Origin: an uncultured delta proteobacterium
GTDB lineage: Bacteria > Myxococcota > Myxococcia > SLRQ01
Direction: 5' to 3'
Assembly: GCA_963727485.1 (NCBI GenBank)
Contig: CAVSGM010000001.1
Coordinates: forward strand, 1,056,001 to 1,120,000
DNA length: 64,000 bases
A program made the position numbers and the translations under genes. The notes beneath the pieces are model-generated. The model worked only from the letters and a program-made list of their open reading frames with translations, was not told where the DNA came from and did no database searches. This document shows, one piece after another, positions 49,799-64,000 of this stretch (the stretch's first letter is position 1; every line of letters begins with the position of its first letter).

Positions 49799-51399
49799 GC
49801 CTGTCCCTGGCCGAGCGCCTCGCCGAGGAGCGCCTCGTCGTCACCCTCGACGACGACTCGGCGCCGCGCGTCCTGTTCAACGGTGAGGACTTCCTCCTCG
49901 CCGACCTCCCCGCGGGCACCCGCGTCGTCTACCCGCGCAAGCCCCTCGAGGGCGTGGCCAACCCCACCGCGGCGATCCGCTACGCCCTCAACCACCCCCA
50001 CGAGATGGACCCGCTCCACGCCCTGCTCCGGCCGGGGATGAAGCTGACCATCGCCATGGACGACATCTCGCTGCCGCTGCCGCCCATGAAGACCCCGGAC
50101 ATCCGCCAGCAGATCCTGGAGATCGTCCTGGGGATGGCCGCCGACGCCGGCGTCGACGACATCGAGATGGTCATCGCCAACTCGTTGCACCGGCGGATGA
50201 GCGCCTGGGAGGTGAAGCGGATGGTGGGCGCCGAGATCTTCGACGCCTGGTGGCCCGACCGCCTCTACAACCACGACGCCGAGGCCGACGACTTCGTCAC
50301 CCTCGGCGAGACCCGCCACGGTGAGCTGGTGCAGCTCCCGCAGCGCGTCGTGGACAGCGACCTGGTCGTCTACGTGAACATCAACCTCGTCCCCATGGAC
50401 GGGGGCCACAAGTCCGTGGGCGTGGGCCTCTCGAACTACGCGTGCCTGGGGGCGCACCACAACCCGGACACCATCCGCAAGTCGGACTCCTACATGGATC
50501 CGTCGCACTCGGAGCTGTCCCACAGCGTCGAGCGCATCGGGAAGATCGTCGACGAGCACGTGAAGGTCTTCCACATCGAGACCGCGCTGAACAACCGGAT
50601 GTTCGAAGGGCAGATGGAGTTCCTCCAGAAGAACGAGGACCACTTCACCGACTTCGACCGCCTGAAGTTCAAGGCGATGCAGGCGTCCCTGGCGAGGCTC
50701 CCGCGCAAGCTCAAGCGCAAGATGCTCTTCAACGTGCCCGCGGCCTACGAGCTCATCGAGTGCCACGCCGGCGCCACCGAGCCCACCCACCAGCGCATCC
50801 TCGACGCCTGCTTCCGCCAGTACGCGGTGCCGGTGAAGGGCCAGAGCGACGTGCTGATCACCGGCATCCCCTACGTCTCGCCCTACAACGTGTACGCGGC
50901 GCTCAACCCGCTTCTGGTCCAGGTGCTGGCCCTCGGGTACTTCCACAACATGTACCGGGGGGCGCCGGTCCTGAAGAAGGACGGGGTGCTCATCATCACC
51001 CACCCCCTCTACGACGAGTTCGACCCGGTGCAGCACCCCAGCTACATCGAGTTCTTCCACCGGCTGCTGCCCGAGACCCGGGACGCGCACACCCTGATGC
51101 GCAAGTACCAGGACGAGTTCGCCAAGAACCCCACCTACGTGCAGATGTACCGCGAGGGGAACGCCTACCACGGCGCCCACCCCTTCTACATGTGGTACTG
51201 GGGCGAGAACGGCCGGCAGCACGTGGGCAAGGTCATCTGCGTGGGCGCCGAGTCGCCGCATGTCACCGACATCCTCGGGTGGGAGCGGGCCGACACCATC
51301 GCCGAGGCCCTGTCCATGGCCCGGTCGCACCTGGGGCGGAGCCCCGAGGTGACCATGCTCCACCACCCGCCCATCTTCATCTCGGACGTCACTCCGTGA
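49795..51399 (+). CDS. LarA/DUF2088 lactate-racemase-domain protein
   Basis: [44 protein letters not shown] coupling. Confidence 0.82.
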
Positions 51400-54300
51400 T
51401 CGAGACCCAGGACACCGGCCCGGTCTCCATCGGGCACCTCCTCGAGAAGAGGCGCATCCTGGTCACCGGGGCCACCGGCTTCGTGGGCAAGGTGGCGCTC
51501 TCCATGCTCCTCGACCGGTACCCCGGCGTGGGCAAGGTCTACGTCCTGGTGCGCCCGGGCCTCTCGGGCACCGCCGACGACCGCTTCTTCGGGAAGGTCC
51601 TGGCGTCGCCGCCCTTCGATCCCCTGCGCGCCACCCACGGCGACGGCCTCGAGGCCTGGATGCGCGAGAAGTGCGAGCCGGTCGCCGGCGACGTCACCGA
51701 GCCCAACCTCGGGCTCGCCGACGACGTGGTGGGGCGCCTGGTGGGGCAGGTCGACGTCATCCTCAACTCCGCGGGGATGGTCGACTTCACCCCGCCGCTC
51801 GACCAGTCGCTCCGGGTCAACTCCCAGGGGGCGCGCCACGCCGTGGAGCTCGCCGCGCGGCTGGGCGCCGGGCTGGTCCACGTGTCCACCTGCTTCACCG
51901 CCGGCCAGCGCGACGGCCACGTCTTCGAGGACCTCGACCTCAAGGGCTACTACCCCAAGCGCCCCGACCTCGGCGACGACTTCGACGCCGCCGCCGAGCT
52001 CGAGGACGGGTGGCAGCGCGTCGCCGAGGTGAAGGCGAAGGTCGAGGACCGGGCCCTGCGCGCCGACCTCTCGCGGCTGGCCCGGGAGCGCCTCGAGGCC
52101 GACGGACGGAACCCCGACGACCCGGGTCAGCTCAAGCTCGCCTTCGGCCGCGAGCGCAAGGCCTGGCAGAGCTCGGCGCTCGTCGACCTGGGCATGGACC
52201 GGGCCAAGCTCTGGGGCTGGCAGAACACCTACTGCTACTCCAAGAGCCTGGGCGACCAGCTCATCCTCGACTACGCGGCGACGGTGCCGGGGATGAACGT
52301 GGCGCTCGCCAAGCCCGCGGTGGTGGAGAGCGCGCTCGCCTACCCGTTCCCCGGGTGGAACGAGGGCTTCACCACCTGCGCGCCCCTGATGTACCTGGGG
52401 ATCAAGGGCCATCGGACCTTCCCCTCGGCGCCGGGGACCATCCTCGACGTCATCCCCGTGGACCAGGTGGCGGCCGGGCTCATCGCCATCACCGCCCTGA
52501 CCGCGGCGGGGCGCCAGGAGCAGGTCTACCAGCTGTGCACCGGCGACTCGAACCCCCTGTGGATGGACCGGGTCATCGAGCTCACCGCCCTGGCCCGGCG
52601 CCAGCACTACCGGGGCCGGGAGTCGGGCAGCGCCCGCCTCGACCACCTCCTGTCGCGCATCGAGCCCCTGCCCAAGAGCAAGCGGGTCTACGACCGGGTC
52701 AGCGTCCCCGCGGCCAAGCGCCTCACCGACCGGCTGCGCAACGCCATCGACCGGGTGGAGCCCACCTGGGGCGCGCCCATGGTCAAGGGGCTCCTCGACG
52801 AGGCGCGCAGCACCCTCGACCGGGTCGACGGCTTCCACGACGAGCGGGGGATGCTCTTCAATCTCTACATGCCGTTCCTCACCGAGGCGCGCTACACCTT
52901 CCGCGCCGACCGGATGAACCGCCTGGCGGCGCGGATGACCCCCGAGGATCGGGAGAAGCTCGGCTGGGATCCGGCGGGGATCCACTGGCGTGACTACTGG
53001 CTCGACACCCACGTGAAGGGCCTCAAGCGCTGGGTCTTCCCCAACCTCGAGGAGGAGCTGGGGAACCGCGGGCGCCGGCGCGAGCGGCCCGCCCGGGACC
53101 TCCTGGAGCTGCTGCAGCTCTCGGTGCGCCGCCACGGGAAGCGCTGGGCGCTCCGGCAGGTCGAGGACGGAACGCGAGGCGCGCTACACCTACGAGGAGC
53201 TGTGGCGTTTCGCCGAGCGCGCCGCCGGCCACCTCGCCGCCGAGGCCCGCCTCGCCGCCGGGGAGCGGGTGATGCTCCTCTCCGAGAACCGCCCCGAGTG
53301 GCCCATGGCCTTCTTCGGGGTGCTCCGGGCCGGAGGCGTGGTGGTGCCGGTGGACGCCGACGCCTCGGCCGCCGAGGTGGCCAACCTCGCCAAGGCCAGC
53401 GGCGCCCGGGCGGTGATCCTCTCCGACGAGGTGCGCGATCGCCTCGGCGGGGCGCTGGCCGCGGCCCTCGACCAGCGGGGACAGGACCCGGCCGTCGTCG
53501 ACCTCGCCGCGCTCTTCGCCCCCGGCCCCGAGACGCCGGCCCTCCCGCGCCTCAAGGCCGACACCCTGGCGTCCGTCATCTTCACCAGCGGCACCACCGG
53601 CACGCCCAAGGGCGTGATGCTCACCCACCGCAACTTCACCTCGCTCACCGCGAAGCTCACCTCGGTCTTCGATCTCAAGCCCGCCGAGGGGGTGCTCTCG
53701 GTCCTGCCGCTCCACCACACCTTCGAGTTCACCTGCGGCCTGCTCACGCCGCTGGCCCAGGGCGCCGAGATCACCTACCTCGGCGAGCTCACCGCCGACG
53801 CCCTCTCCGACGCCCTGCGCGGCGGGCGCATCACCGCCATGGTCGGGGTGCCGGCCCTGTGGCAGACCCTCCACCGGCGCATCGAGCAGGACCTCGAGGC
53901 CCGGGGCCCCTGGGCCAGGGAGCTGGTCCACGGGATCATGTCCCTGAACCGCGAGCTCCGGGACCGGACGCCCATCAACCTGGGCAAGCTCCTCTTCCTC
54001 CCGGTGCACCGGCGCCTGGGCAACGTGCGCTTCCTGGTGAGCGGCGGCTCGGCGCTCCCGCCCGAGGTCCTCGAGGCCTTCCAGGGCCTGGGCTTCGATC
54101 TCTACGAGGGCTACGGCCTCACCGAGGCGGCGCCGGTGATCACCGTCAGCCGCCCCGGCGAGGGGGCCAAGGTCGGCTCGGTGGGCCAGGCGCTGCCGGG
54201 CCTCGAGGTGCGCATCTCCGACCCCGACGGCGAGGGGGTGGGCGAGGTCGTGGCCCGGGGCCCGAGCGTGATGCAGGGCTACTTCGGCGACACCGCCGCC

Positions 54301-55911
54301 ACCGAGGCCACCCTCGAGGGCGGGTGGCTGCACACCGGCGACCTCGGCCGCCTCGACGCCGACGGCAACCTCTACATCGTCGGCCGGGCCAAGGACGTCA
54401 TCGTCGACGCCGGGGGCAAGAACATCTACCCCGACGAGATCGAGACCCTCTACGGCGAGCACCCCTATCTCCTGGAGCTCTGCGTGGTGGGCCTCGCCGA
54501 GACCGGCTCGAAGGGCGAGCGGGTAGCCTGCCTCGCCGTCCCCGACTACGAGGCCGGCGAGCAGGCCGGCCTCTCCCGCGACGAGGTGAGGGCCCAGGTG
54601 CGCGCCCACTTCCGCGACGTCGGGGCCACGCTGCCCCTCTACCGGCGCATCAAGGTCCTCCACCTCTGGGACGGCGAGCTCCCACGCACGGCCACCCGCA
54701 AGGTGCGCCGGCCGATGGTGGTCACCGAGCTGGGGCGCCTGGAGCGCGCCAGCCGGGCCACCGGGGGCAAGGCGCCACCGCCCCGGCGCGAGGGGGCGGC
54801 GTGGGTCACCGGCCTGGTCGCCGCGGTGGCGCAGAAGCAGGCCGACCAGGTGCGCCCCGAGGACAAGCTGGTCGACGACCTGGGCCTCGACTCCCTGGGC
54901 CTCTCCGAGCTCGGCGCCGCGGTGGAGGAGGCCGGGGTGCGCCTCCCCGAGGGCCTCGAGGCCGAGCTCCAGGGGGCCACCGTCGCCGACCTGGCCCGGA
55001 TCGTCGCCGCCGCCCCGCGCACCTCCGCCAAGACGCCGACCAAGGCGCCGGTGGCGGTGGGCGAGCTCGAGCTCCCCGAGGTGGTGGCGCGCCTGGGTAC
55101 CCGGGCCCTGCGCCTCGGCCAGCGGGCGATCTACGAGCAGCTCCTCGAGGTCCGGGTCATGGGCCAGGAGCACCTGCCCACCCAGGGCTCGGTGCTGGTC
55201 GCCGCCAACCACTCCAGCCACCTCGACATGGGCCTGGTGAAGCACGCCCTCGGCGAGCAGGGCGACCGGCTGGCCACGCTCGCGGCCCGCGACTACTTCT
55301 TCGGCACGCCCCTGCGCCGCCTCTACTTCGGCAGCTTCACCAACCTGCTCCCCATGGAGCGCGAGGGGTCGGTGCGCGAGAGCCTGCGGCTCGCCGGCCA
55401 GGCCCTGCACCGGGGCCACCACCTGCTCATCTTCCCCGAGGGCACCCGGTCGACCAGCGGGGAGATGGCGCCGTTCCTCCCCAGCGTCGGCTACCTCGCC
55501 CTCCAGCAGAAGGCCGACGTCCTCCCCATGTACCTCGGCGGCACCCACGACGCCCTCCCCAAGGGCGCCAGCCTCCCCAAGCGGATGCCCCTGCGGGTGG
55601 CCATCGGGCCGGTGATCCCGGTGTCGGTCCTCGCCGCGGCCACCGAGGGGCTCGGGCGCCAGGACACCTACCGCCTGGCCACGGCGATCATCGAGGACGC
55701 GGTCTGCGCCCTCCGGGACGCACGGTCGAAGCGCACCCCCGCCGAGATCCGCGCCGGGCTCGACGGCCTCGGCGAGACCCGGGACGCCCGGGCCCAGCGG
55801 GCCGCCCTCGACGAGGCCGAGGGGGTCGCGGGGGCCGACCGGACCCCGGACGCCCTCCCCGACGACGACGCACCTGCGGCCGCCCCCCACATCGAGGAGC
55901 TCGACGGATGA
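51396..55911 (+). CDS. elbD: ElbD-like multidomain ether-lipid enzyme (fatty acyl reductase - acyl-CoA/AMP ligase - ACP - acyltransferase), with +1 frameshift at ~53171
   Basis: TGATGFVG and [13 protein letters not shown] (reductase); [21 protein letters not shown] (AMP-binding); LGLDSL (ACP Ser); NHSSHLD, FPEGTRS (PlsC-type). LRQVEDG joins [10 protein letters not shown] after removing one A. Confidence 0.85.
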
Positions 55912-56912
55912 GTCGCACCGTCCTGGTCACCGGCGGCACCGGGTTCCTGGGCCGGCACCTGGTCCACCACCTCCTCGGCACCGGCGCCAAGGTGCGCGTG
56001 CTGGCCCGGGGCGAGGACGAGGCCCTCACCGCGGCCGGGGCCGAGGTCCGCGCCGGCTCCATCCTCGACCCCCAGGCCGTCGCCTCCGCGGCGAAGGGCT
56101 GCGAGGCGGTGCTCCACTGCGCCGGCCTGGTCTCCCGGGACCCGGAGCACGCCGCGCGTCTCTACCAGCTCCACATCGAGGGCACCCGCACCGTGCTCAC
56201 CGCCGCGGCCGAGGCCGGGGTGGGGCGCCTGGTGCTGGCGAGCACCAGCGGCACCGTGGCCGTGTCGCGGGACCCGGAGCCCGTCCCCGACGAGACCTTC
56301 CCCGACCCCATCGAGCTCATCGGCGCCTGGCCCTACTACACCAGCAAGCTCTACCAGGAGCGCGCGGCCTTCCGCCTCGGCGCCGAGCTCGGGGTGGAGG
56401 TGGTCTCGGCGAACCCCAGCCTGCTCCTCGGCCCCGGCGACGTCCGGGTCTCCTCGGTGGGCGACGTCCTCAACTTCCTCCAGCGCGACGTGCCGGTGGT
56501 GCCCCCCGGCGGCCTCTCCTTCGTCGACGCCCGGGACGTCGCCGTGGCCATGACCACCCTCCTCGACCGGGGCGAACCGGGGCAGCGCTACCTCCTCACC
56601 GGCGCCAACCTGTCCTTCGAGCACTTCTTCGATCGCCTGGCCCACATCTCCGGGGTCGACCCGCCCCGGATGCGCCTGCCCAAGGAGGCCCTGCGACTGG
56701 GGGCCCGGGCCCTGGACCTCGCCGGCAAGGCGCTGCGCTTCACCCCCAAGGTCGACCCGGTGAGCGCCGCCATGGCCGAGGTCTTCTGGTACGCCGACGA
56801 CGCCAAGGCGCGCCGGGAGCTCGACTTCGTCTCCCGGGACCCCTACGAGACCCTCGCCGACACCGTGCTCGACCTCAAGGAGCGGGGGCTCTGGGAGCCG
56901 AGGGCCGCCTGA
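55908..56912 (+). CDS. NAD-dependent epimerase/dehydratase (extended SDR)
   Basis: TGGTGFLG, STSG, YYTSK, NPSLLLGPGD, FVDARDVA. Confidence 0.9.
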   Translation: MSRTVLVTGGTGFLGRHLVHHLLGTGAKVRVLARGEDEALTAAGAEVRAGSILDPQAVASAAKGCEAVLHCAGLVSRDPEHAARLYQLHIEGTRTVLTAAAEAGVGRLVLASTSGTVAVSRDPEPVPDETFPDPIELIGAWPYYTSKLYQERAAFRLGAELGVEVVSANPSLLLGPGDVRVSSVGDVLNFLQRDVPVVPPGGLSFVDARDVAVAMTTLLDRGEPGQRYLLTGANLSFEHFFDRLAHISGVDPPRMRLPKEALRLGARALDLAGKALRFTPKVDPVSAAMAEVFWYADDAKARRELDFVSRDPYETLADTVLDLKERGLWEPRAA

Positions 56913-57256
56913 TGCCGCCGCCGTTCACCCGACACGTCTTCATCTGCACCAACGAGCGCCCCCCGGGCCACCCCAAGGGCGACTGCCTCTCCAAGGGCGG
57001 GCCCGAGGTGGTCCAGGCCTTCAAGGCCGAGCTGGCGCAGCGCGGGCTCAAGGGCAGCATCCGGGCCCAGCGCGCCGGCTGCCTCGACAACTGCGCCCTG
57101 GGGGTGAGCGTGGTCGTCTACCCCGAGGCCGTGTGGTACGCCCACGTCACCGTCGACGACGTCGCCGAGATCGTGGAGCGGCACCTGGTGGGCGGGGAGC
57201 CGGTCGAGCGCCTGCGGATCTACCAGGGCGACGCCGGGCCGGCGCGCCAAGCCTAG
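56912..57256 (+). CDS. Thioredoxin-like [2Fe-2S] ferredoxin
   Basis: HVFICTNER...C...AGCLDNC..G..VVVYPEAVWY...HLVGGEPV; TGATG coupling. Confidence 0.93.
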   Translation: MPPPFTRHVFICTNERPPGHPKGDCLSKGGPEVVQAFKAELAQRGLKGSIRAQRAGCLDNCALGVSVVVYPEAVWYAHVTVDDVAEIVERHLVGGEPVERLRIYQGDAGPARQA

Positions 57257-57612
57257 GCGGTCGCCAGGAGCGCCGCGGCCACCTTCGCCACCGCCGACGC
57301 CGCCTCCAGCGCCAGCGCCGGCCGGTCACCCTCCTCGGAGAGGTAATGGAGGCGCAGCTCCACCCGGCCCGTCGCCGGCACCACCAGGAGCCGGTGGCCG
57401 CCCGTAAGCTCCAGGTCCCACACCGACGGCACCCGGGTGTGGTCCACGTGCCCGGCGGCGACCAGGGCGGCCCGGAGGTCCTCCCACGAGGACACCGGCG
57501 CCGCCAGCCTCACCCGCCAGGTGAGGTGGCGATAGCAGCCGTGGGCCATGGTGACCGCGGCCCAGTCGTTCGACAGCGCGTCGAGGGTGCCGTCGTCCCC
57601 GTCACCCGACAT
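57253..57612 (-). CDS. Small hypothetical protein, last gene of the ParA/roadblock/V4R operon
   Basis: Globular-looking ORF overlapping the end of the upstream gene by 11 bp; start uncertain (57612 or 57549). Confidence 0.55.
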   Translation of the reverse strand: MSGDGDDGTLDALSNDWAAVTMAHGCYRHLTWRVRLAAPVSSWEDLRAALVAAGHVDHTRVPSVWDLELTGGHRLLVVPATGRVELRLHYLSEEGDRPALALEAASAVAKVAAALLATA

Positions 57613-58879
57613 GGGTGACGACGACCTCGGAGTACGGGTACCCCATGGCCGTGGACCGGGTCTGCTCCACCTTCCAGGGCAGGGTGCCGCCGTGGAAGAG
57701 CGACTGGTAGAGCTCGGGGGTGAGCTGCACCGGCTTCGTCCAGTCGACCCGGTGGGCGAGCTGGGCGATGGCCAGCGCCGCCCCCTGGAAGAAGTACTCG
57801 GGAGGCCGTTTCGCGACCCCGTGGCGGGTGCGGTAGTAGACGCTCTCGTAGGTGGCCGGGGCGCGCACCACCAGCCGCTCGCCGGGGACGAACTCGTGAA
57901 GGGTCCAGTGGCCGAAGCCCAGCGCCCGGGCGATGGCCAGGGCCCCGGCGACGATGGGCCGCGGCTCCCCGGAGTGGGGCCCGACCATCCCCTCCCACTC
58001 GGGCGAGGCGAGGATGCCGCCGAAGGTGTTGAACACGCACACGTGCCCGCTCTCCCGGAGGAGGTCCTCGAAGACGCCCACCGAGCCCGGGGCCCGGCGC
58101 TCGACGTCGAGGAGGGTGTCGTAGGAGATCCGGTTGTAGTAGCCGGCGAGGTGCATGGTGACGAAGACCCCGAAGGCCTGCACCAGGCCCCGGGCGTCCC
58201 CGGCGACCCCGGCGGTGAAGTCCCGCAGACCGCCGGCGATGGTGGCGATGGTCTCCTCGTCCTCGCCGTCGAAGGTGGGCTTCACCTGGGCGGCGGCCTC
58301 GGTGCCGGTGACCACGGGTACCGCCGGGGTGGGCGAGCCCGCGGCGGCGATCTCGAAGCGGCACTGCTCGGCGCGCAGCGCCACGCAGGCGGTCTCGGTG
58401 GCGTCGAGGGTCTCCCGGGCGACGCCGTAGGCGACCTCGGTGGCGGCGGCGGCGAAGCCCGCGGCGAAGGCGTCGGCGGGGTGGCGGCGGCGGATCTTCT
58501 GCCCGTACTTCTCGTGCCAGGCGAAGCCGTAGTGGAGGAACTCGCCGATGGCGTTGCCCCCGGTGGCGTCGGCGCGCACCGAGAGGCGGCCGTGGCCCAT
58601 GGCGGCGAAGGTCTCCATGGCGCACTGCATCCGCTCCACCGGCGTCACCGCACCGGTGCGCTCGCAGAGGGCCGAGAGGAAGGTGTGGGCCGCCTCCCGG
58701 GCGGCAACGAAGCGCAGCCGGGCCCCGGCCTCGGGTCCCAGGGCGTCGTCGACGGTCTGGTCGAGGAAGAGGTTGAAGTGGTGGCAGTGGTAGACCGCGG
58801 GCACCCCGACCATGGTCATCAGGTCGTAGCCGGGGAGGTAGGCGCGGGGGGACTCGGTGGGGGTCTCGGGGGTGGTCAT
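57602..58879 (-). CDS. Tandem V4R/H-NOX-fold protein
   Basis: Two similar halves: AMGHGRL...ETACVALRAEQCRFEI and ALGFGHW...QTRSTAMGYPYSEVVV; N-terminal HCHH motif. Confidence 0.7.
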   Translation of the reverse strand: MTTPETPTESPRAYLPGYDLMTMVGVPAVYHCHHFNLFLDQTVDDALGPEAGARLRFVAAREAAHTFLSALCERTGAVTPVERMQCAMETFAAMGHGRLSVRADATGGNAIGEFLHYGFAWHEKYGQKIRRRHPADAFAAGFAAAATEVAYGVARETLDATETACVALRAEQCRFEIAAAGSPTPAVPVVTGTEAAAQVKPTFDGEDEETIATIAGGLRDFTAGVAGDARGLVQAFGVFVTMHLAGYYNRISYDTLLDVERRAPGSVGVFEDLLRESGHVCVFNTFGGILASPEWEGMVGPHSGEPRPIVAGALAIARALGFGHWTLHEFVPGERLVVRAPATYESVYYRTRHGVAKRPPEYFFQGAALAIAQLAHRVDWTKPVQLTPELYQSLFHGGTLPWKVEQTRSTAMGYPYSEVVVTHVG

Positions 58880-58891
58880 CGTCGCCTCGCG

Positions 58892-59471
58892 TCAGATGGA
58901 GAGGGTCTCGAGGCCGAGGATGTCCTTCACGGACTCCTCGAAGGCGTCGAGCTGCTCCGGGGTGAGGGCCTCGGCCTTGCGCAACGACTCCAGGGGGACG
59001 CCGGTCCGCAGGGCCACGCGGGCCAGGGCGGCGTGGGGATCCGGGGCGTACTTCTCCAGGAACTCGGTGATCCGGAATCCCCCGGGGACGCTCCTTGACC
59101 TCGAGGCGCGGGAGCACCGGCTCGAGGCGCTCGAGGAGGCGCTTGGTGTACATCCGCACCATGCCCAGGGGCGCCTCGCGCTCGAAGGCGAAGGTGACCA
59201 CGAAGTCGCCGTGGAGCTCCCGGAGCACCAGGAGCAGGTCCGCGGACTCGATGGTGACCTGCATCTCCGCCGACCAGCTCTTGAGGGCCTTGAGCCCCTC
59301 GCGGTTGGCGCGGACCAGGTCGCCGAAGAACGAGGCGGTGTCCTCGGGGACCCAGGTCTCCTCGGCGGTGGTCCAGGCATCGAAGAGCAGGCAGTCGGGC
59401 ATCGCGGTCACGAAGACCCCGCGCAGCGACGGCACATCGGCGACAACGTCCTTGAGATGGGGCCGTTCCAT
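58892..59471 (-). CDS. Roadblock/LC7 (MglB-like) domain plus C-terminal helical domain, with +1 frameshift at ~59080
   Basis: Pattern helix - GVFVTAMPDCLL - helix - VTIESADLLLVLREL..DFVVTFAF..APLGMVRM; continues in another frame as RITEFLEKYAPDPHAALARVALRTG. Confidence 0.7.
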
Positions 59472-60142
59472 CAGGCTTCTCCTCGAGCTCTCACCGAGAG
59501 CTGGGTGATTCGGCGGATTCGGTGGACCATGTCCCGGTTCAGGGCGCCTCCGAGGACCAGGCCCACGGCGAGGCGGCCGGCGGAGGTGTCGGACCAGATG
59601 ACCTGGAGCACGTTCTGGTGGTCGAGCTCCACGGTGGAGCTGCCGGCGACCGGGGAGGGGACGAAGCGGGCGATGGTCTCCTGGGCGCGGCCCAGGGGTC
59701 CCACCGCCGCGAGATAGCTCTCGGGGGCGTTCCGGTTGGTCAGGGGCAGCCCGTCGGTGTCGGTGACGAAGGCGGCGTAGGCGCCGGTGCCCCCCATGAG
59801 CCAGTCGACGAAGGCGGCGAGGCGCGCCTCCATGTTCAGGGTGTCGGCGTAGACCCCGAAGACGGTGGCCTCGAGGTCCGCCTCGTCGAGCTCGGCGATG
59901 GTCGGGAGGCCCGCGTCGTCCTCGGCGTCGAGGGTGTCGGCGGGGTCGGCGGGGTCGGCGGGGGGCACGGCCGCGGCGGGGGGCCGGGGCGCCGCCACCA
60001 CCGGGGCGGGCGGTCCGGGCGAGGTGAAGGCCTCGACGCCCAGGGGCGCCGTCGGCGCCGCGGGGGCGTCTTGGACCCCCGCCCGGGCGAGGAGGCGCGC
60101 CAGGGCCTCGCGGTCAGGTAAGAAGCGGGATCGGGCCATCAT
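59471..60142 (-). CDS. Pro/Ala-rich N-terminus plus roadblock/LC7-like domain
   Basis: GAYAAFVTDTDGLPL hairpin, helix, three strands, final helix; overlaps both neighbours. Confidence 0.65.
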   Translation of the reverse strand: MMARSRFLPDREALARLLARAGVQDAPAAPTAPLGVEAFTSPGPPAPVVAAPRPPAAAVPPADPADPADTLDAEDDAGLPTIAELDEADLEATVFGVYADTLNMEARLAAFVDWLMGGTGAYAAFVTDTDGLPLTNRNAPESYLAAVGPLGRAQETIARFVPSPVAGSSTVELDHQNVLQVIWSDTSAGRLAVGLVLGGALNRDMVHRIRRITQLSVRARGEA

Positions 60143-60917
60143 CGGTCTCGTCGGTTGCCAGCCCCACCCGGTGCTCGAGCTCGGTGGCGGCCTGGTCGAA
60201 GAGGGCGGCCGCCGGGGGCGCCTGGCGGCGGAGGAGGCCCACGGGGACGCCGGCCCCGCTCGCCTGGAGGAAGACCGGGTCCCGGGGGACGGTGGTCTTG
60301 AGCACTGCGGCCTCGGGGAGCTCGGTGGCCGCCTCCAGGGCCACCCCCGCCGACTCGGCGTCGCCGCGGTCGACCATGGTGAGGAGGAAGCCGCCGAGGG
60401 TCACCTGGGCGCCCTCCTCGCGCAGGGCCCCGATGACCTCCAGGAGCTGGGCCGCGGAGCGCAGGGCCAAGGGCTCGGACTGGAGGGGGCTGATGACCGA
60501 GTGGGCCACCCGCATCACCCCCAGGGTGGCGCCGGTGAACCCCGAGGGGGTGTCGAGGAGGAGGACGTCGAAGCGGGGCGTCGCCTCGGCCACCAGGCGC
60601 CGCAGCGCCTTGCCGTCGGCGAGACGCGAGGCGAAGGCGTGGGTCGCCTGGATGGCGAGGTTGCCCACCGGGAGGAGGTGGAGCTCGGAGAGCCGGGTCC
60701 GCATCATCACCGCGTCCAGGGTGAGCTCCCGGGCGACGTAGCCGGCGAGGCCGGGCCCGGTCTTCATGCCCTGGAGCGAGAGCCCGACGCCGCCCTGGGG
60801 GTCGGTGTCCGCGAGGAGCACCCGGTGCCCCCGCCGCGCCAGGGCGAAGGCGGTGTTGAGGGCGACGGTGGTCTTGCCCACGCCGCCCTTCTGGCTCACC
60901 ACGCCGATGACTTTCAT
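60114..60917 (-). CDS. ParA/MinD-family ATPase
   Basis: GAGGA RBS; SQKGGVGKTT deviant Walker A, DTDPQG, LLDTPSG. Confidence 0.93.
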   Translation of the reverse strand: MKVIGVVSQKGGVGKTTVALNTAFALARRGHRVLLADTDPQGGVGLSLQGMKTGPGLAGYVARELTLDAVMMRTRLSELHLLPVGNLAIQATHAFASRLADGKALRRLVAEATPRFDVLLLDTPSGFTGATLGVMRVAHSVISPLQSEPLALRSAAQLLEVIGALREEGAQVTLGGFLLTMVDRGDAESAGVALEAATELPEAAVLKTTVPRDPVFLQASGAGVPVGLLRRQAPPAAALFDQAATELEHRVGLATDETDDGPIPLLT

Positions 60918-61846
60918 TGGTTCCTCATCCGGGCCTCGAGGCGTTCGATGTTGTGGGCCACCCGCCGGTCGTCGGGGCGCTGGTCCCGGCAGGCGCGGAA
61001 GAGCTCGAGGGCGCGGTCGAGATCGCGCCGCACGTAGGCCTGGGTGGCTTCGCGGAACAGGTCGTCGTAGGTGGGCCCGGTCTCCTCGGCGGCCGGCGGG
61101 GGCTCCGGTTCCGGCACCAGGGCCAGGGGCGGCCCCGGGGGCGCCTCCGGGGCGTCGGCGGCGTCGAGAGAGAGCACGCCCCGCTCCAGGAGCCGGGCCA
61201 GGGCCCGGGCGGTGGCGAAGCGGCCGGCCCGGGACGACTCGAGGATGTCCCCGGCGGTGGCGATGCCGTCGACGAGCTCGAGGACCAGGCTCTCGGTGGG
61301 CGTGGGGCGCCGCTCGGCGAGGCGCGCCTCCGCCGCCGCCGCCCGGGTGGGGATCCGGTCGAGGTGGCCGAGGCGCTCGAGGTGGGCGGCGTGGAGCTTC
61401 TGCTTGAGGAGCTGGATGCCCCGGGACACCGAGGGGTTGTCCGGAGCCACCTTGCGCATCCGGTAGAGGACGTCGAGGGCCTCGTCGTAGCGCTTCTCCC
61501 GGAGCAGGGTCACGAACCGGGCCTTGTCCAGGGTGGGGTCGTCGGCGAGCCCGACGTCGGCCCCGTCCTCGAGCTCCTCGACCACCGCCCGGAGCGCCGC
61601 CGGCGCCGGGTCCCGGCGCTCCACCGGCTCCACCGCCGGGGCCGGCGCCTCGTCCGGCGCGGCGGGGGCGTCCTCGTGGCCCTCGGCGGCCAGGGCCGCG
61701 AGGTACTCGTCCGCCCGGGGATCCGCCGCGTCGAGGAGCCGGGCCTCCCGCCAGCACCGCGCCGCCTCGTCGAAGCGGTTCATGGCGTAGAGGTCGAGGC
61801 CGGTGCGCAGGAGCACCTCGAGGCGGCTCTTGGGGCTGGAGGCCAT
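60914..61846 (-). CDS. TPR - winged-helix - TPR protein
   Basis: N-terminal TPR (GLDLYAMNRFDEAARCW), central LELVDGIATAGDILESS....F...RALARLLERGVL wHTH, C-terminal TPR (AYVRRDLDRALELF); ATGA overlap with the ParA gene. Confidence 0.75.
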   Translation of the reverse strand: MASSPKSRLEVLLRTGLDLYAMNRFDEAARCWREARLLDAADPRADEYLAALAAEGHEDAPAAPDEAPAPAVEPVERRDPAPAALRAVVEELEDGADVGLADDPTLDKARFVTLLREKRYDEALDVLYRMRKVAPDNPSVSRGIQLLKQKLHAAHLERLGHLDRIPTRAAAAEARLAERRPTPTESLVLELVDGIATAGDILESSRAGRFATARALARLLERGVLSLDAADAPEAPPGPPLALVPEPEPPPAAEETGPTYDDLFREATQAYVRRDLDRALELFRACRDQRPDDRRVAHNIERLEARMRNQ

Positions 61847-62131: not shown

Positions 62132-63928
62132 TCACCGCTTCGGGGCGGGCGTCGCGGCCTCGCCGCCGGTGCCCTCGGGGGCCGCCTCCGGTCGTGTCTC
62201 GTCGCCGCCGGTCACCTCGCCCTTGCCGGCGGTGGGGTCGCCGAAGCGCTCCCGGAGGGCCTCCAGGGACGCGGCCCGGGCGGCCACCACCACCCGGTCG
62301 CCGCTCTCGATGATGGTGTCGCCGTGGCCGGCGAGGGTGGTGCGGTCCCGGAGGACCGAGACCAGCACCGCGTCGTCGGGGAGCCCGAGGCTGCGCACCG
62401 GCTGCCTCGCCGCCGGCGACCGCGCCCCCACCCGGAAGGCGTAGAGGTAGCGGTCGGTGCCCGGCAGCGGCACGGCGTCGCCGCTGCCCAGACGGTCGGC
62501 GAGCTCATGGACGATGACGTCGTCCTCGAGGTGGAAGCGGTGCTGGCGCAGGAGCGAGAGGGTGGCCCGGTAGTACTCGCGGTGGTGGACCGGGCTGTCC
62601 GCCGGCGAGTCCACCTGGGACTCGTAGAGGCTCTGGTACCTGGCGTTGCGGGTGAGGCGCTGCTGGACCACCACCGAGATGACCACCGCCACCATGGTCG
62701 GCACCACCAGCCCGTAGCTGCCGGTCAGCTCGGCGACCATGATCAGCGAGGCGAGGGGCACCCGGGCCGCGCCGGCGAAGACCGCGGCCATGCCCACCAC
62801 CGCGAAGGCCTGGGGCGGGATGGAGGTGCCGATGACCGTATGGGAGAGCGCCGCCAGGCCCCCACCGAGCATGGCGCCCACGTAGAGGGTCGGGGCGAAG
62901 ACGCCACCGGAGCCGCCGGAGCCCATGGTCAGGGCCAGGGAGATGAGCTTGGCGAAGGCCAGGCCCAGCATCAGCATCATCGGCAGCCGCCCGTCGATGG
63001 CCAGCTGCATCCACCCGTAGCCCCCGGAGAGGACCTGGGGCAGCCACATCGCGGGGATCCCCAGGAGCAGCCCGCCGATGGCCGGCTTGAAGTGCGGGGC
63101 GATGGGGATCTTGTGGAAGAGATCGCGCATCCCGTAGAAGACCGTCGGCGCCACCGAGGCCAGAAGCCCCGCCACCAGGCCGAGGCCGGCGTAGGCCACC
63201 AGGTGGCTGGCGTGGTCGAAGGCGAGGTGGGGCGGGAGGTGGAAGAGGGGCGCCCAGCCGGAGATGGCGCCGGTGACGCCGTAGGCCACCGCCGAGGCCA
63301 CGATGGTGAACCCCAGCGCCGTCCCCTCGAAGGCGAGGCTGCCGTAGAGGATCTCCACGGCGAAGATGGCCGTGCCCAGCGGGCTCTTGAAGATCGCCGA
63401 GAGGCCGGCGGCCATGCCCATGAGCACCAGGTAGCGCCGGTCGTCGTCGGAGAGCTTGAGCAGGGAGCCCAGGACCGAGGCGAAGCCCGCGGCGATCTGC
63501 GCCGACGGCCCCTCGCGCCCGGCCGAGCCCCCCGACCCGATGGTGATGGCGCTGGCGATGGTCTTGACCACCGGCACCCGCGCCCGCATCCGGCCCCCCT
63601 CCTGGTGGTAGCTCTTGATGGCGGCGTCGTCGCCGTGGCCCTCGGCCTCGGGGGCGAAGAAGTAGACCAGGGCCCCGGAGACCAGCCCGCCGAGGACCAG
63701 GATCAGGGGCAGGTGCCACCCGAGGAAGTGCACCGACGGGATCGCCCCGCCGCCGGCGACCTGGTCAGGGGTGGGGAGCTGCCAGCCGGTGAACCAGGTC
63801 AGCAGGTACTTCTCGGTCAGCCCCAGCATCCAGAGGAAGACCTGGGCGCCGAGGGCTCCGAAGGCGCCGACGATCACGGCCAGGCCGAGCAGCCGCGCGT
63901 TCTGCGTGAGTTTCGGACGCCGCGTCAC
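62132..63928 (-). CDS. ClC chloride/proton transporter with C-terminal TrkA-C (RCK-C)-like domain
   Basis: GGAGG RBS, GTG 63928; APEAEGHG, GSAGREGP (gating Glu), GGSGGVFAP, QSLY; C-terminal LPDDAVLVSVLRD...GDTIIESGDRVVV. Confidence 0.92.
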   Translation of the reverse strand: MTRRPKLTQNARLLGLAVIVGAFGALGAQVFLWMLGLTEKYLLTWFTGWQLPTPDQVAGGGAIPSVHFLGWHLPLILVLGGLVSGALVYFFAPEAEGHGDDAAIKSYHQEGGRMRARVPVVKTIASAITIGSGGSAGREGPSAQIAAGFASVLGSLLKLSDDDRRYLVLMGMAAGLSAIFKSPLGTAIFAVEILYGSLAFEGTALGFTIVASAVAYGVTGAISGWAPLFHLPPHLAFDHASHLVAYAGLGLVAGLLASVAPTVFYGMRDLFHKIPIAPHFKPAIGGLLLGIPAMWLPQVLSGGYGWMQLAIDGRLPMMLMLGLAFAKLISLALTMGSGGSGGVFAPTLYVGAMLGGGLAALSHTVIGTSIPPQAFAVVGMAAVFAGAARVPLASLIMVAELTGSYGLVVPTMVAVVISVVVQQRLTRNARYQSLYESQVDSPADSPVHHREYYRATLSLLRQHRFHLEDDVIVHELADRLGSGDAVPLPGTDRYLYAFRVGARSPAARQPVRSLGLPDDAVLVSVLRDRTTLAGHGDTIIESGDRVVVAARAASLEALRERFGDPTAGKGEVTGGDETRPEAAPEGTGGEAATPAPKR

Positions 63929-64000
63929 CCCTGCCTCCCACTCGCCCCCGACCACCGGCGGCGCCGGCGCGTCTCCGAGGCCCGGCCGGGCACCCACGGA

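Follow-up and report, generated by a model that had tools for sequence, protein, structure and literature searches.

The window considered here, a stretch of 64,000 nucleotides from contig CAVSGM010000001.1 of an uncultured member of the Myxococcota, whose closest named homologues likewise point to a myxobacterial host, carries on its minus strand, between positions 57253 and 61846, a compact run of six genes (A to F) in which a ParA/MinD-family ATPase gene lies among genes for Roadblock-type and tandem V4R-type proteins. An open reading frame check placed all six where they had first been read. Gene A (61846-60914, 310 amino acids (aa)) encodes TPR units and a possible winged helix, gene B (60917-60114, 267 aa) the ParA/MinD-family ATPase, and gene C (60142-59471, 223 aa) a protein with an N-terminal helix, a Pro/Ala linker and a Roadblock/LAMTOR-like domain. 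Gene D (59471-58892) is broken near 59076-59080. Gene E (58879-57602, 425 aa) encodes a tandem XylR_N/V4R sensor-fold protein and gene F (57612-57253, 119 aa) a stand-alone protein whose fold matches none known. The genes overlap or nearly touch exactly as stated in the preliminary description: A and B share ATGA, B and C overlap by 29 bp, C and D meet at TGATG, D and E are separated by 12 bp, and E and F overlap by 11 bp. The GC content at third codon positions is 0.93-0.98 across all six genes, each of which is single-copy in the 5.55-Mb host genome. From the gene junctions we infer that A to F are co-transcribed as one unit; promoter and terminator scans found nothing.

The frame break in D, first located at about 59080, can be placed at a single extra base, 59076, which shifts the frame and separates a 5' part (59077..59471) encoding an MglB-like Roadblock domain from a 3' part (58892..59075) encoding a four-helix C-terminal domain. 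This base is missing from contigs of about 98-99% identity found in three runs, two of them (X1 and X5) from one study and a third (X2) from another, and it forms a gap position in a DNA alignment of D with four homologues. In addition, D is a single reading frame in all 54 loci that hold it, out of 55 homologous loci. Its absence from such close relatives makes an assembly error the probable cause, a strain-specific lesion being the less likely alternative. The idea that D is a pseudogene is likewise disfavoured by these contigs, and by a second extra base in the window (53171) that is also missing in X1.

The assignment of B to the ParA/MinD family is borne out by family matches and by its ATPase motifs. 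The KGGVGKT sequence is intact, and K10, K15, D37, D39 and D122, which include the signature lysine of the deviant Walker A motif and the catalytic aspartate, are invariant in 38 of 38 sequences. A quick ParA tree, with members picked by profile score and only three outgroup rows, gave the B clade (82 rows) an SH-aLRT value of 99. Positioning ATPases are described as engaging the nucleoid via basic residues or the membrane via a C-terminal helix, and as being tuned by N-terminal peptides of their partners (PMC10241942). In Myxococcus xanthus ParA, where D60 and R238 serve as reference residues for mapping, DNA binding is reported to be lost in R238E, and the ParB peptide sits in a hydrophobic groove at the ParA dimer's edge (PMC12462528). 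Mapped from an alignment to 8ray, the R238-type column holds no Arg and one Lys among 105 sequences of the B clade. The column of Soj R189, a second basic position, contains Arg in 71 of the 105 and Gly in B of the window. B shows no C-terminal membrane-targeting helix of the MinD/FlhG type; in 37 of 38 sequences the final 15 residues are acidic, and the protein closes with a short tail of the PIxLL type. As B has neither the R238-type arginine nor the membrane-targeting helix, classical positioning, and with it the spatial-positioning role first proposed for this operon, appears doubtful, although B could still bind DNA via other residues. Since the known DNA- and membrane-binding features are missing, B probably has a protein partner as its output, a gradient on nucleoid or membrane being less likely.

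A candidate for a cognate, peptide-bearing partner of B is encoded immediately downstream, where C starts within the last 29 bp of B. The start of C lies inside the 3' end of B in 40 of 41 ParA loci (in the 41st, C was missed by the gene caller and recovered by profile), and a further set chosen through ParA (L059-L081) has the same overlap in 22 of 23 cases. C begins with a conserved amphipathic helix spanning roughly residues 2-22. A Pro/Ala linker of highly variable length connects it to a Roadblock/LAMTOR-like domain at about residues 98-220, and the total length ranges from 176 to 401 aa. The helix is kept past the overlap with B, as L17 is found in 36 of 39 sequences and a hydrophobic residue at position 14 in all 39. 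Pfam matched LAMTOR5 in five of 41 members (best E 6.5e-6) and Robl_LC7 in two of 41, a structure-atlas lead for C scored below 0.9, and the C profile gave only chance-level hits against the PDB; the Roadblock-like identity of C is weakly supported.

N-terminal partner peptides are described as a general device of ParA/MinD proteins (PMC10241942, PMC12462528), and the complex modelling suggested at the outset for the ParA-Roadblock pair points weakly to the same device in this operon. Modelled together, two copies of B, ATP and residues 1-40 of C scored 0.50, compared with 0.00 for the best control, with contacts agreeing to at least 68% and a partner pLDDT of at least 53. The mark used is reached by 116 of 157 solved and by 2 of 215 mismatched pairs, and at or below 0.60 there are only 18 solved pairs together with both mismatches. 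Docking of the C N-terminal helix on the ATP-bound B dimer is thus weakly predicted. The earlier proposal that a Roadblock heterodimer regulates the ATPase is retained in part: a Roadblock-type protein is tightly coupled to ParA, and the predicted contact is the helix of C. Judged from sequence, the operon is built in two layers, a core of B and C and a cassette of the D tail, E and F. At one locus (L095:2491-7613) A-B-C runs in the opposite orientation to D-E-F, which fits this split.

D was modelled on its intact homologue from locus L001 (pLDDT 91.5). Its residues 1-123 form a Roadblock domain, with Roadblock matches ranging from Z 16.4, to an Asgard Roadblock, down to Z 14.8, and with Z 15.2 to M. 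xanthus MglB (rmsd 2.4, 120 aligned residues). MglB is also the best PDB match of the D profile (E 3e-4), and its LG(L/M)VR motif is retained in D. Of the two roadblock-like proteins read by eye at first, D is therefore established by fold, and C by weak profile hits only. The tail of D is a four-helix domain with a YAPDPH motif, which matched no family and no helix-turn-helix in Pfam, PDB profile or viral fold searches; an XRE/Cro-type helix-turn-helix, considered as a candidate for it, is unsupported by any of the three. The tail is intact only beside E. A phylum sample of 401 genomes, with only four candidates scored in each, gave 17 strong D-tail matches, every one of them next to one of the 17 strong E matches; four weaker tail matches do not adjoin E. 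At four B-C-D loci whose genomes have no E match, the bit score of the tail is 16-22, as against about 60-115 at nearly all E-adjacent loci and 38-57 in three distant paralogues. At locus L142, D is cut down to the tail alone and still stands beside E.

The model of E (pLDDT 95.8) resembles PoxR (Z 13.9, rmsd 3.5, 175 aligned residues) and DmpR (Z 13.3) most closely, followed at lower ranks by TRAPP (Z 8.3), BcsD (7.6) and H-NOX (5.5), and Foldseek matched it to MopR (E 2e-4). The two halves of E are homologous to each other (E 1.1e-4). The preliminary description had called E a tandem V4R/H-NOX-fold protein; the tandem V4R part is upheld by the fold and the internal homology, whereas H-NOX as the closest fold is rejected by the far higher scores of PoxR and DmpR. 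No HNOB hit was obtained in Pfam, and no H-NOX structural Z exceeded 5.5. The 425 residues of E comprise two sensor folds only, and sigma-54 activator and DNA-binding domains are absent.

The XylR-type zinc site is described as three Cys and one Glu (PMC10715001). In the first half of E, all 88 sequences compared share D136, E162, C165 and C173, residues that occupy the XylR-type Cys-Glu-Cys-Cys positions, where they may form a putative zinc-type site; the position of the first Cys is Asp in this E subfamily and Cys in a second one. The corresponding site in the second half of E is degenerate. An additional HCxH motif (H31, C32 and H34) is invariant in the subfamily, with C32 varying in two distant members. 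The phenol-anchoring His/Trp pair is absent from E: in the alignment, the second half of E has A340 where myxobacterial XylR_N proteins have their Trp, and by motif spacing, read by eye, F91 and A317 stand at the two His positions and G112 at that of the first-half Trp. F, which usually follows E, contains an invariant C26 and three invariant arginines. Its family comprises 288 clusters in a profile search, the best 150 of which are all 94-164 aa long; it matched no family or fold in Pfam or the PDB, and its Atlas score was below 0.9.

The second tandem-V4R subfamily, E', is found in a three-gene unit consisting of a hemerythrin-like gene, E' and a small Cys gene (L091, L208, L210-L213, L215, L216 and L218-L221), and it carries cysteine zinc-type sites in both halves. 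This unit is possibly a redox or metal module of its own. The small gene after E' and F gave no significant match to each other (E 0.26).

A contains three separated TPR units joined by low-complexity linkers, and its TPR call was confirmed by Pfam TPR matches in 19 of 19 homologues. A winged-helix-like pattern was read by eye at about residues 158-229, with weak hits to AsnC (E 0.26) and DUF742 (E 0.14), the latter in one of 19 A middle regions. DUF742 is the family label of CvnC-type conservon proteins. At other loci the slot of A is often filled by PATAN-TPR, receiver-PATAN or Ser/Thr-kinase proteins that carry the same last TPR. Of 46 genome loci, 37 match the profile of this C-terminal TPR tag and only 21 have the A-type middle region.

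A search with E recovered 55 loci in GTDB genomes and 80 metagenome loci. The genome carriers belong mostly to Myxococcota and Acidobacteriota, with two Methylococcales. Gene order was counted at loci picked via E with at least 3.2 kb upstream of E, using profiles built from the genome loci and keeping near-duplicates. B, C, D and E stand in this order at 39 of the 46 genome loci counted and at 27 of the 33 from metagenomes, with D present in 45 and F in 41 of the 46, so that the neighbourhood check proposed initially found the gene order kept elsewhere, in Myxococcota and Acidobacteriota. The distribution of the operon is patchy. E matches occur in 2 of the 41 nearest genomes, host included, and within the phylum sample 38 of 401 genomes hold any E match, this E subfamily accounting for 17 places in 15 genomes.

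The single six-gene system initially envisaged gives way to a modular one: some loci have D-E-F and no ParA, others have ParA-C-D and no E, and PATAN or kinase proteins frequently stand in for A. For three loci without an adjacent ParA, a ParA-C(-D) operon is found elsewhere in the genome. In a member of the Methylococcaceae (L047:4455-9502), genes for respiratory nitrate reductase precede D-E-F on the same strand; neither a ParA of the clade nor MglA was found in this genome. One subclade (L052, L053, L075, L128, L224, L225, L227-L229 and L240) has a HAD hydrolase gene before ParA-C-D (by Pfam for L227), often with Rieske-like and CrcB-like genes recognised by eye.

The same ParA clade also stands beside other sensors, identified with Pfam: ODP at seven loci, H-NOX together with a globin at one, and globins at three. 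The conserved ODP-type sister operon (L066-L069, L071-L074, L080, L081, L090, L230, L233, L235, L237 and L238) contains genes for a PAS histidine kinase, a Roadblock protein, ODP (sometimes two), a receiver-PATAN-TPR protein, ParA and a C-like Roadblock protein. At L061 a Roadblock gene and an H-NOX gene lie near globin and kinase genes, and at L082, L084 and L085 globin genes lie beside ParA, with the globin once fused to PATAN. ODP has been described as an oxygen sensor in Treponema chemotaxis (PMC7666581), and binding of oxygen or nitric oxide is already established for the sensor families of these sister cassettes.

The interpretation that we tentatively prefer, with a confidence just short of even, is that the operon constitutes a relay from a sensor to an ATP switch, running from E (with F) through the D tail to the C-D pair and from there through the C helix to B. 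E, probably together with F, would sense a small molecule or a metal or redox cue, and D would bind E through its four-helix tail. C and D would pair as a Roadblock heterodimer that links E to B, and the tethered helix of C would set the duration of the ATP-dimer state of B. The TPR-tag protein, A or its PATAN or kinase substitute, would bind the complex as a scaffold or second input and tie it to other signalling. PATAN neighbours hint at motility or polarity machinery as the output. The relay of a cue to an ATP switch is rendered likely by the oxygen- and nitric-oxide-sensor families that sit beside the same ATPase in related operons.

Several observations weigh against this relay. The complex score for B and C falls in a weak band, and its controls were folded proteins, not amphipathic helices. 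Solved complexes of ParA/MinD proteins with peptides exist, so the docking score may reflect likeness to them. With a net charge of -4 to +5, the C peptide is not distinctly basic, unlike known activating peptides, and it may therefore tether rather than activate B. Part of the C helix motif, moreover, falls in the coding overlap of B and C. The profile match of C to D reaches only E 0.007 with a probability of 5%. With regard to the genomes, 6 of 49 hosts show no ParA of the clade (the genomes are incomplete, and one locus lies at a contig edge), and MglA is present in 46 of the 49. Finally, the E' loci hold no Roadblock or ParA gene in their flanks (1.5 kb, and about 8 kb for L091), from which it appears that E-type proteins can work without the ParA switch.

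The preliminary description had offered a different explanation, in which the ParA takes the place of an MglA-type GTPase, the C-D Roadblock heterodimer acts in the manner of a GTPase-activating protein (GAP), and the module positions E or sets polarity. As had been noted for the window, no GTPase was found in the operon across 190 loci (1.98 Mb). The GTPase-type genes seen in these loci were an MglA-like gene about 15 kb from a ParA, a Ras/Roc gene belonging to a different cluster 6.4 kb beyond F, and a translation-factor-like gene starting 7 kb off. This absence speaks for the explanation, as do the MglB fold and motif of D and the PATAN genes in the operons, PATAN genes being described as neighbours of mglA and mglB (PMC4316618). 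Nevertheless, B has no evident matrix, given its R238-type column and the absent membrane-targeting helix, and its supported contact is the peptide of C. Moreover, the host genome has a canonical mglB-mglA pair separate from the operon, and some hosts of D-E-F are without ParA. Because 21 MglA-paralogue neighbourhoods in host genomes held no C, E or TPR tag, the exchange of MglA for ParA lacks support in these genomes. We regard this explanation as unlikely. Among the paralogues, those at L245, L247-L250 and L252 have long C-terminal extensions and a fixed place between heat-shock-type and nrdR/lon-like genes, by eye, and at L244:4754-6534 mglB is followed by two tandem mglA copies.

The host mglB-mglA pair and the occurrence of MglA in nearly all hosts leave room for action on MglA in trans, whereby the Roadblock proteins would pass the sensor signal to the MglA/MglB switch of the host and ParA would only cluster or place the complex. 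The PDB profile match of D to MglB and the persistence of D-E-F without ParA fit this explanation. However, the two Methylococcales hosts that carry D-E-F (L031 and L047, both incomplete genomes) yielded no MglA at E 1e-10 and no ParA of the clade, and C is tied to B, not to MglA. Co-occurrence of MglA with the operon is uninformative, as MglA is near-universal in these groups and the operon is patchy. Signalling to MglA in trans is, on balance, decidedly unlikely.

In another scheme, E and F would handle a metal or cofactor instead of sensing a cue, with B as an insertase-like ATPase of the Mrp/CooC type. The invariant His and Cys residues of E, the Cys of F and the hemerythrin-like neighbour of E' accord with this scheme. 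It is nonetheless improbable, as B scores far under the Mrp/ApbC cut-offs and has no conserved cysteine motif, the companion genes encode signalling domains (receiver, PATAN and kinases), and no conserved target enzyme lies nearby. Most improbable is a FleN-like role, in which B would regulate, in an ATP-dependent manner and with transcription as output, a partner that binds DNA, either A's winged helix or D's helical tail: FleN is among the PDB relatives of B, the fold of E derives from sensor domains of transcription activators and A has its winged-helix-like pattern with weak hits, but the A-type middle is restricted to fewer than half of the loci, the D tail matches no helix-turn-helix family, and conserved neighbouring target genes are absent.

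To return to the sensor-to-ATP-switch relay, a broader version of it can be put forward with more caution: the loci may represent a new class of switch, in which Roadblock dimers, familiar as regulators of small GTPases and dynein, would serve as a plug-in hub that joins swappable gas, redox or small-molecule sensors (tandem V4R, ODP, H-NOX and globin) and phosphorylation inputs (receiver-PATAN proteins and kinases) to a ParA ATP switch working off DNA and membrane in the manner of a G protein. The core of the operon resembles a ParA with its peptide partner, and the operon lacks one or more defining features of each of MglA-MglB, conservons, XylR sensors and matrix-binding ParA/MinD systems. 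As in ParA-ParB, MinD-MinE and McdA-McdB (PMC10241942, PMC12462528), B has a deviant Walker A with intact catalytic residues and an adjacent partner, C, with a conserved hydrophobic helix at its N terminus that is borne on a flexible linker and weakly predicted to dock on the dimer. Unlike in those systems, the operon partner is Roadblock-like, its peptide is not basic, B has neither an R238-type Arg nor a membrane helix, and a sensor cassette is attached. With MglA-MglB(-MglC) of M. xanthus (PMC6785124, PMC4316618) the operon shares the Roadblock fold and motif of D, two Roadblock-type genes and the phylum, and with PATAN-linked mglAB neighbourhoods (PMC4316618) the frequent presence of PATAN (DUF4388) genes. 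It departs from MglA-MglB in having no GTPase, in adding ParA and V4R genes, in the separate location of the host mglBA, and in a D that ends in a four-helix domain where MglB has an acidic C-terminal helix.

The actinobacterial conservons, G-protein systems made up of CvnA-D (PMC13343842, PMC4316618), are similar as compact operons that combine a Roadblock protein, a nucleotide switch and sensor-like accessories, and the ODP-type sister loci also carry a histidine kinase; by contrast, there is no Ras-like GTPase corresponding to CvnD, and no histidine kinase corresponding to CvnA is found among the six genes or conserved beside E loci. E has the fold of the V4R domains of XylR, DmpR, MopR and PoxR (PMC10715001) and a first-half zinc-type site with Asp for the first Cys, yet it consists of two fused copies (a pseudo-dimer), has no His/Trp phenol anchor and no sigma-54 activator domains, and bears the extra invariant HCxH motif. 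TRAPP and Ragulator, with Roadblock, longin and Bet3 folds, and their Asgard counterparts (PMC10933270, PMC2253512) likewise bring Roadblock and V4R/Bet3 folds together; the likeness is at fold level only, as the present case is a bacterial operon with ParA rather than Rab or Rag GTPases.

In keeping with the first impression that the composition corresponds to no described system, searches of open-access full texts found no paper on the operon or on a Roadblock partner of ParA; supplementary neighbourhood tables of a 2014 survey (PMC4316618) may list such loci. In the text of that survey, 328 of 749 MglB-family proteins are given as orphans, none of them then characterised (PMC4316618). If the proposed switch is true, orphan Roadblock proteins would gain a non-GTPase client and the ParA/MinD family a sensor-gated, matrix-free use, and an overlooked route from chemical cues to cell behaviour would exist in myxobacteria and acidobacteria.

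The genes flanking the operon in the window are not kept beside it at homologous loci. Upstream of A and on the same strand lies a gene for a CLC channel with a TrkA-C domain (62132-63997, minus strand). On the other side, a small gene for a thioredoxin-like ferredoxin (56912-57256, plus strand; weak Suc_Fer-like match in Pfam) is convergent with F and overlaps its stop by 4 bp. Further away, on the plus strand, a long gene (51399-55911) is split by the extra base at 53171, which the near-identical X1 contig does not have and which is probably a second assembly indel; by eye, this gene encodes a fatty-acyl-reductase-like part, an AMP-binding ligase, a carrier domain and an acyltransferase.

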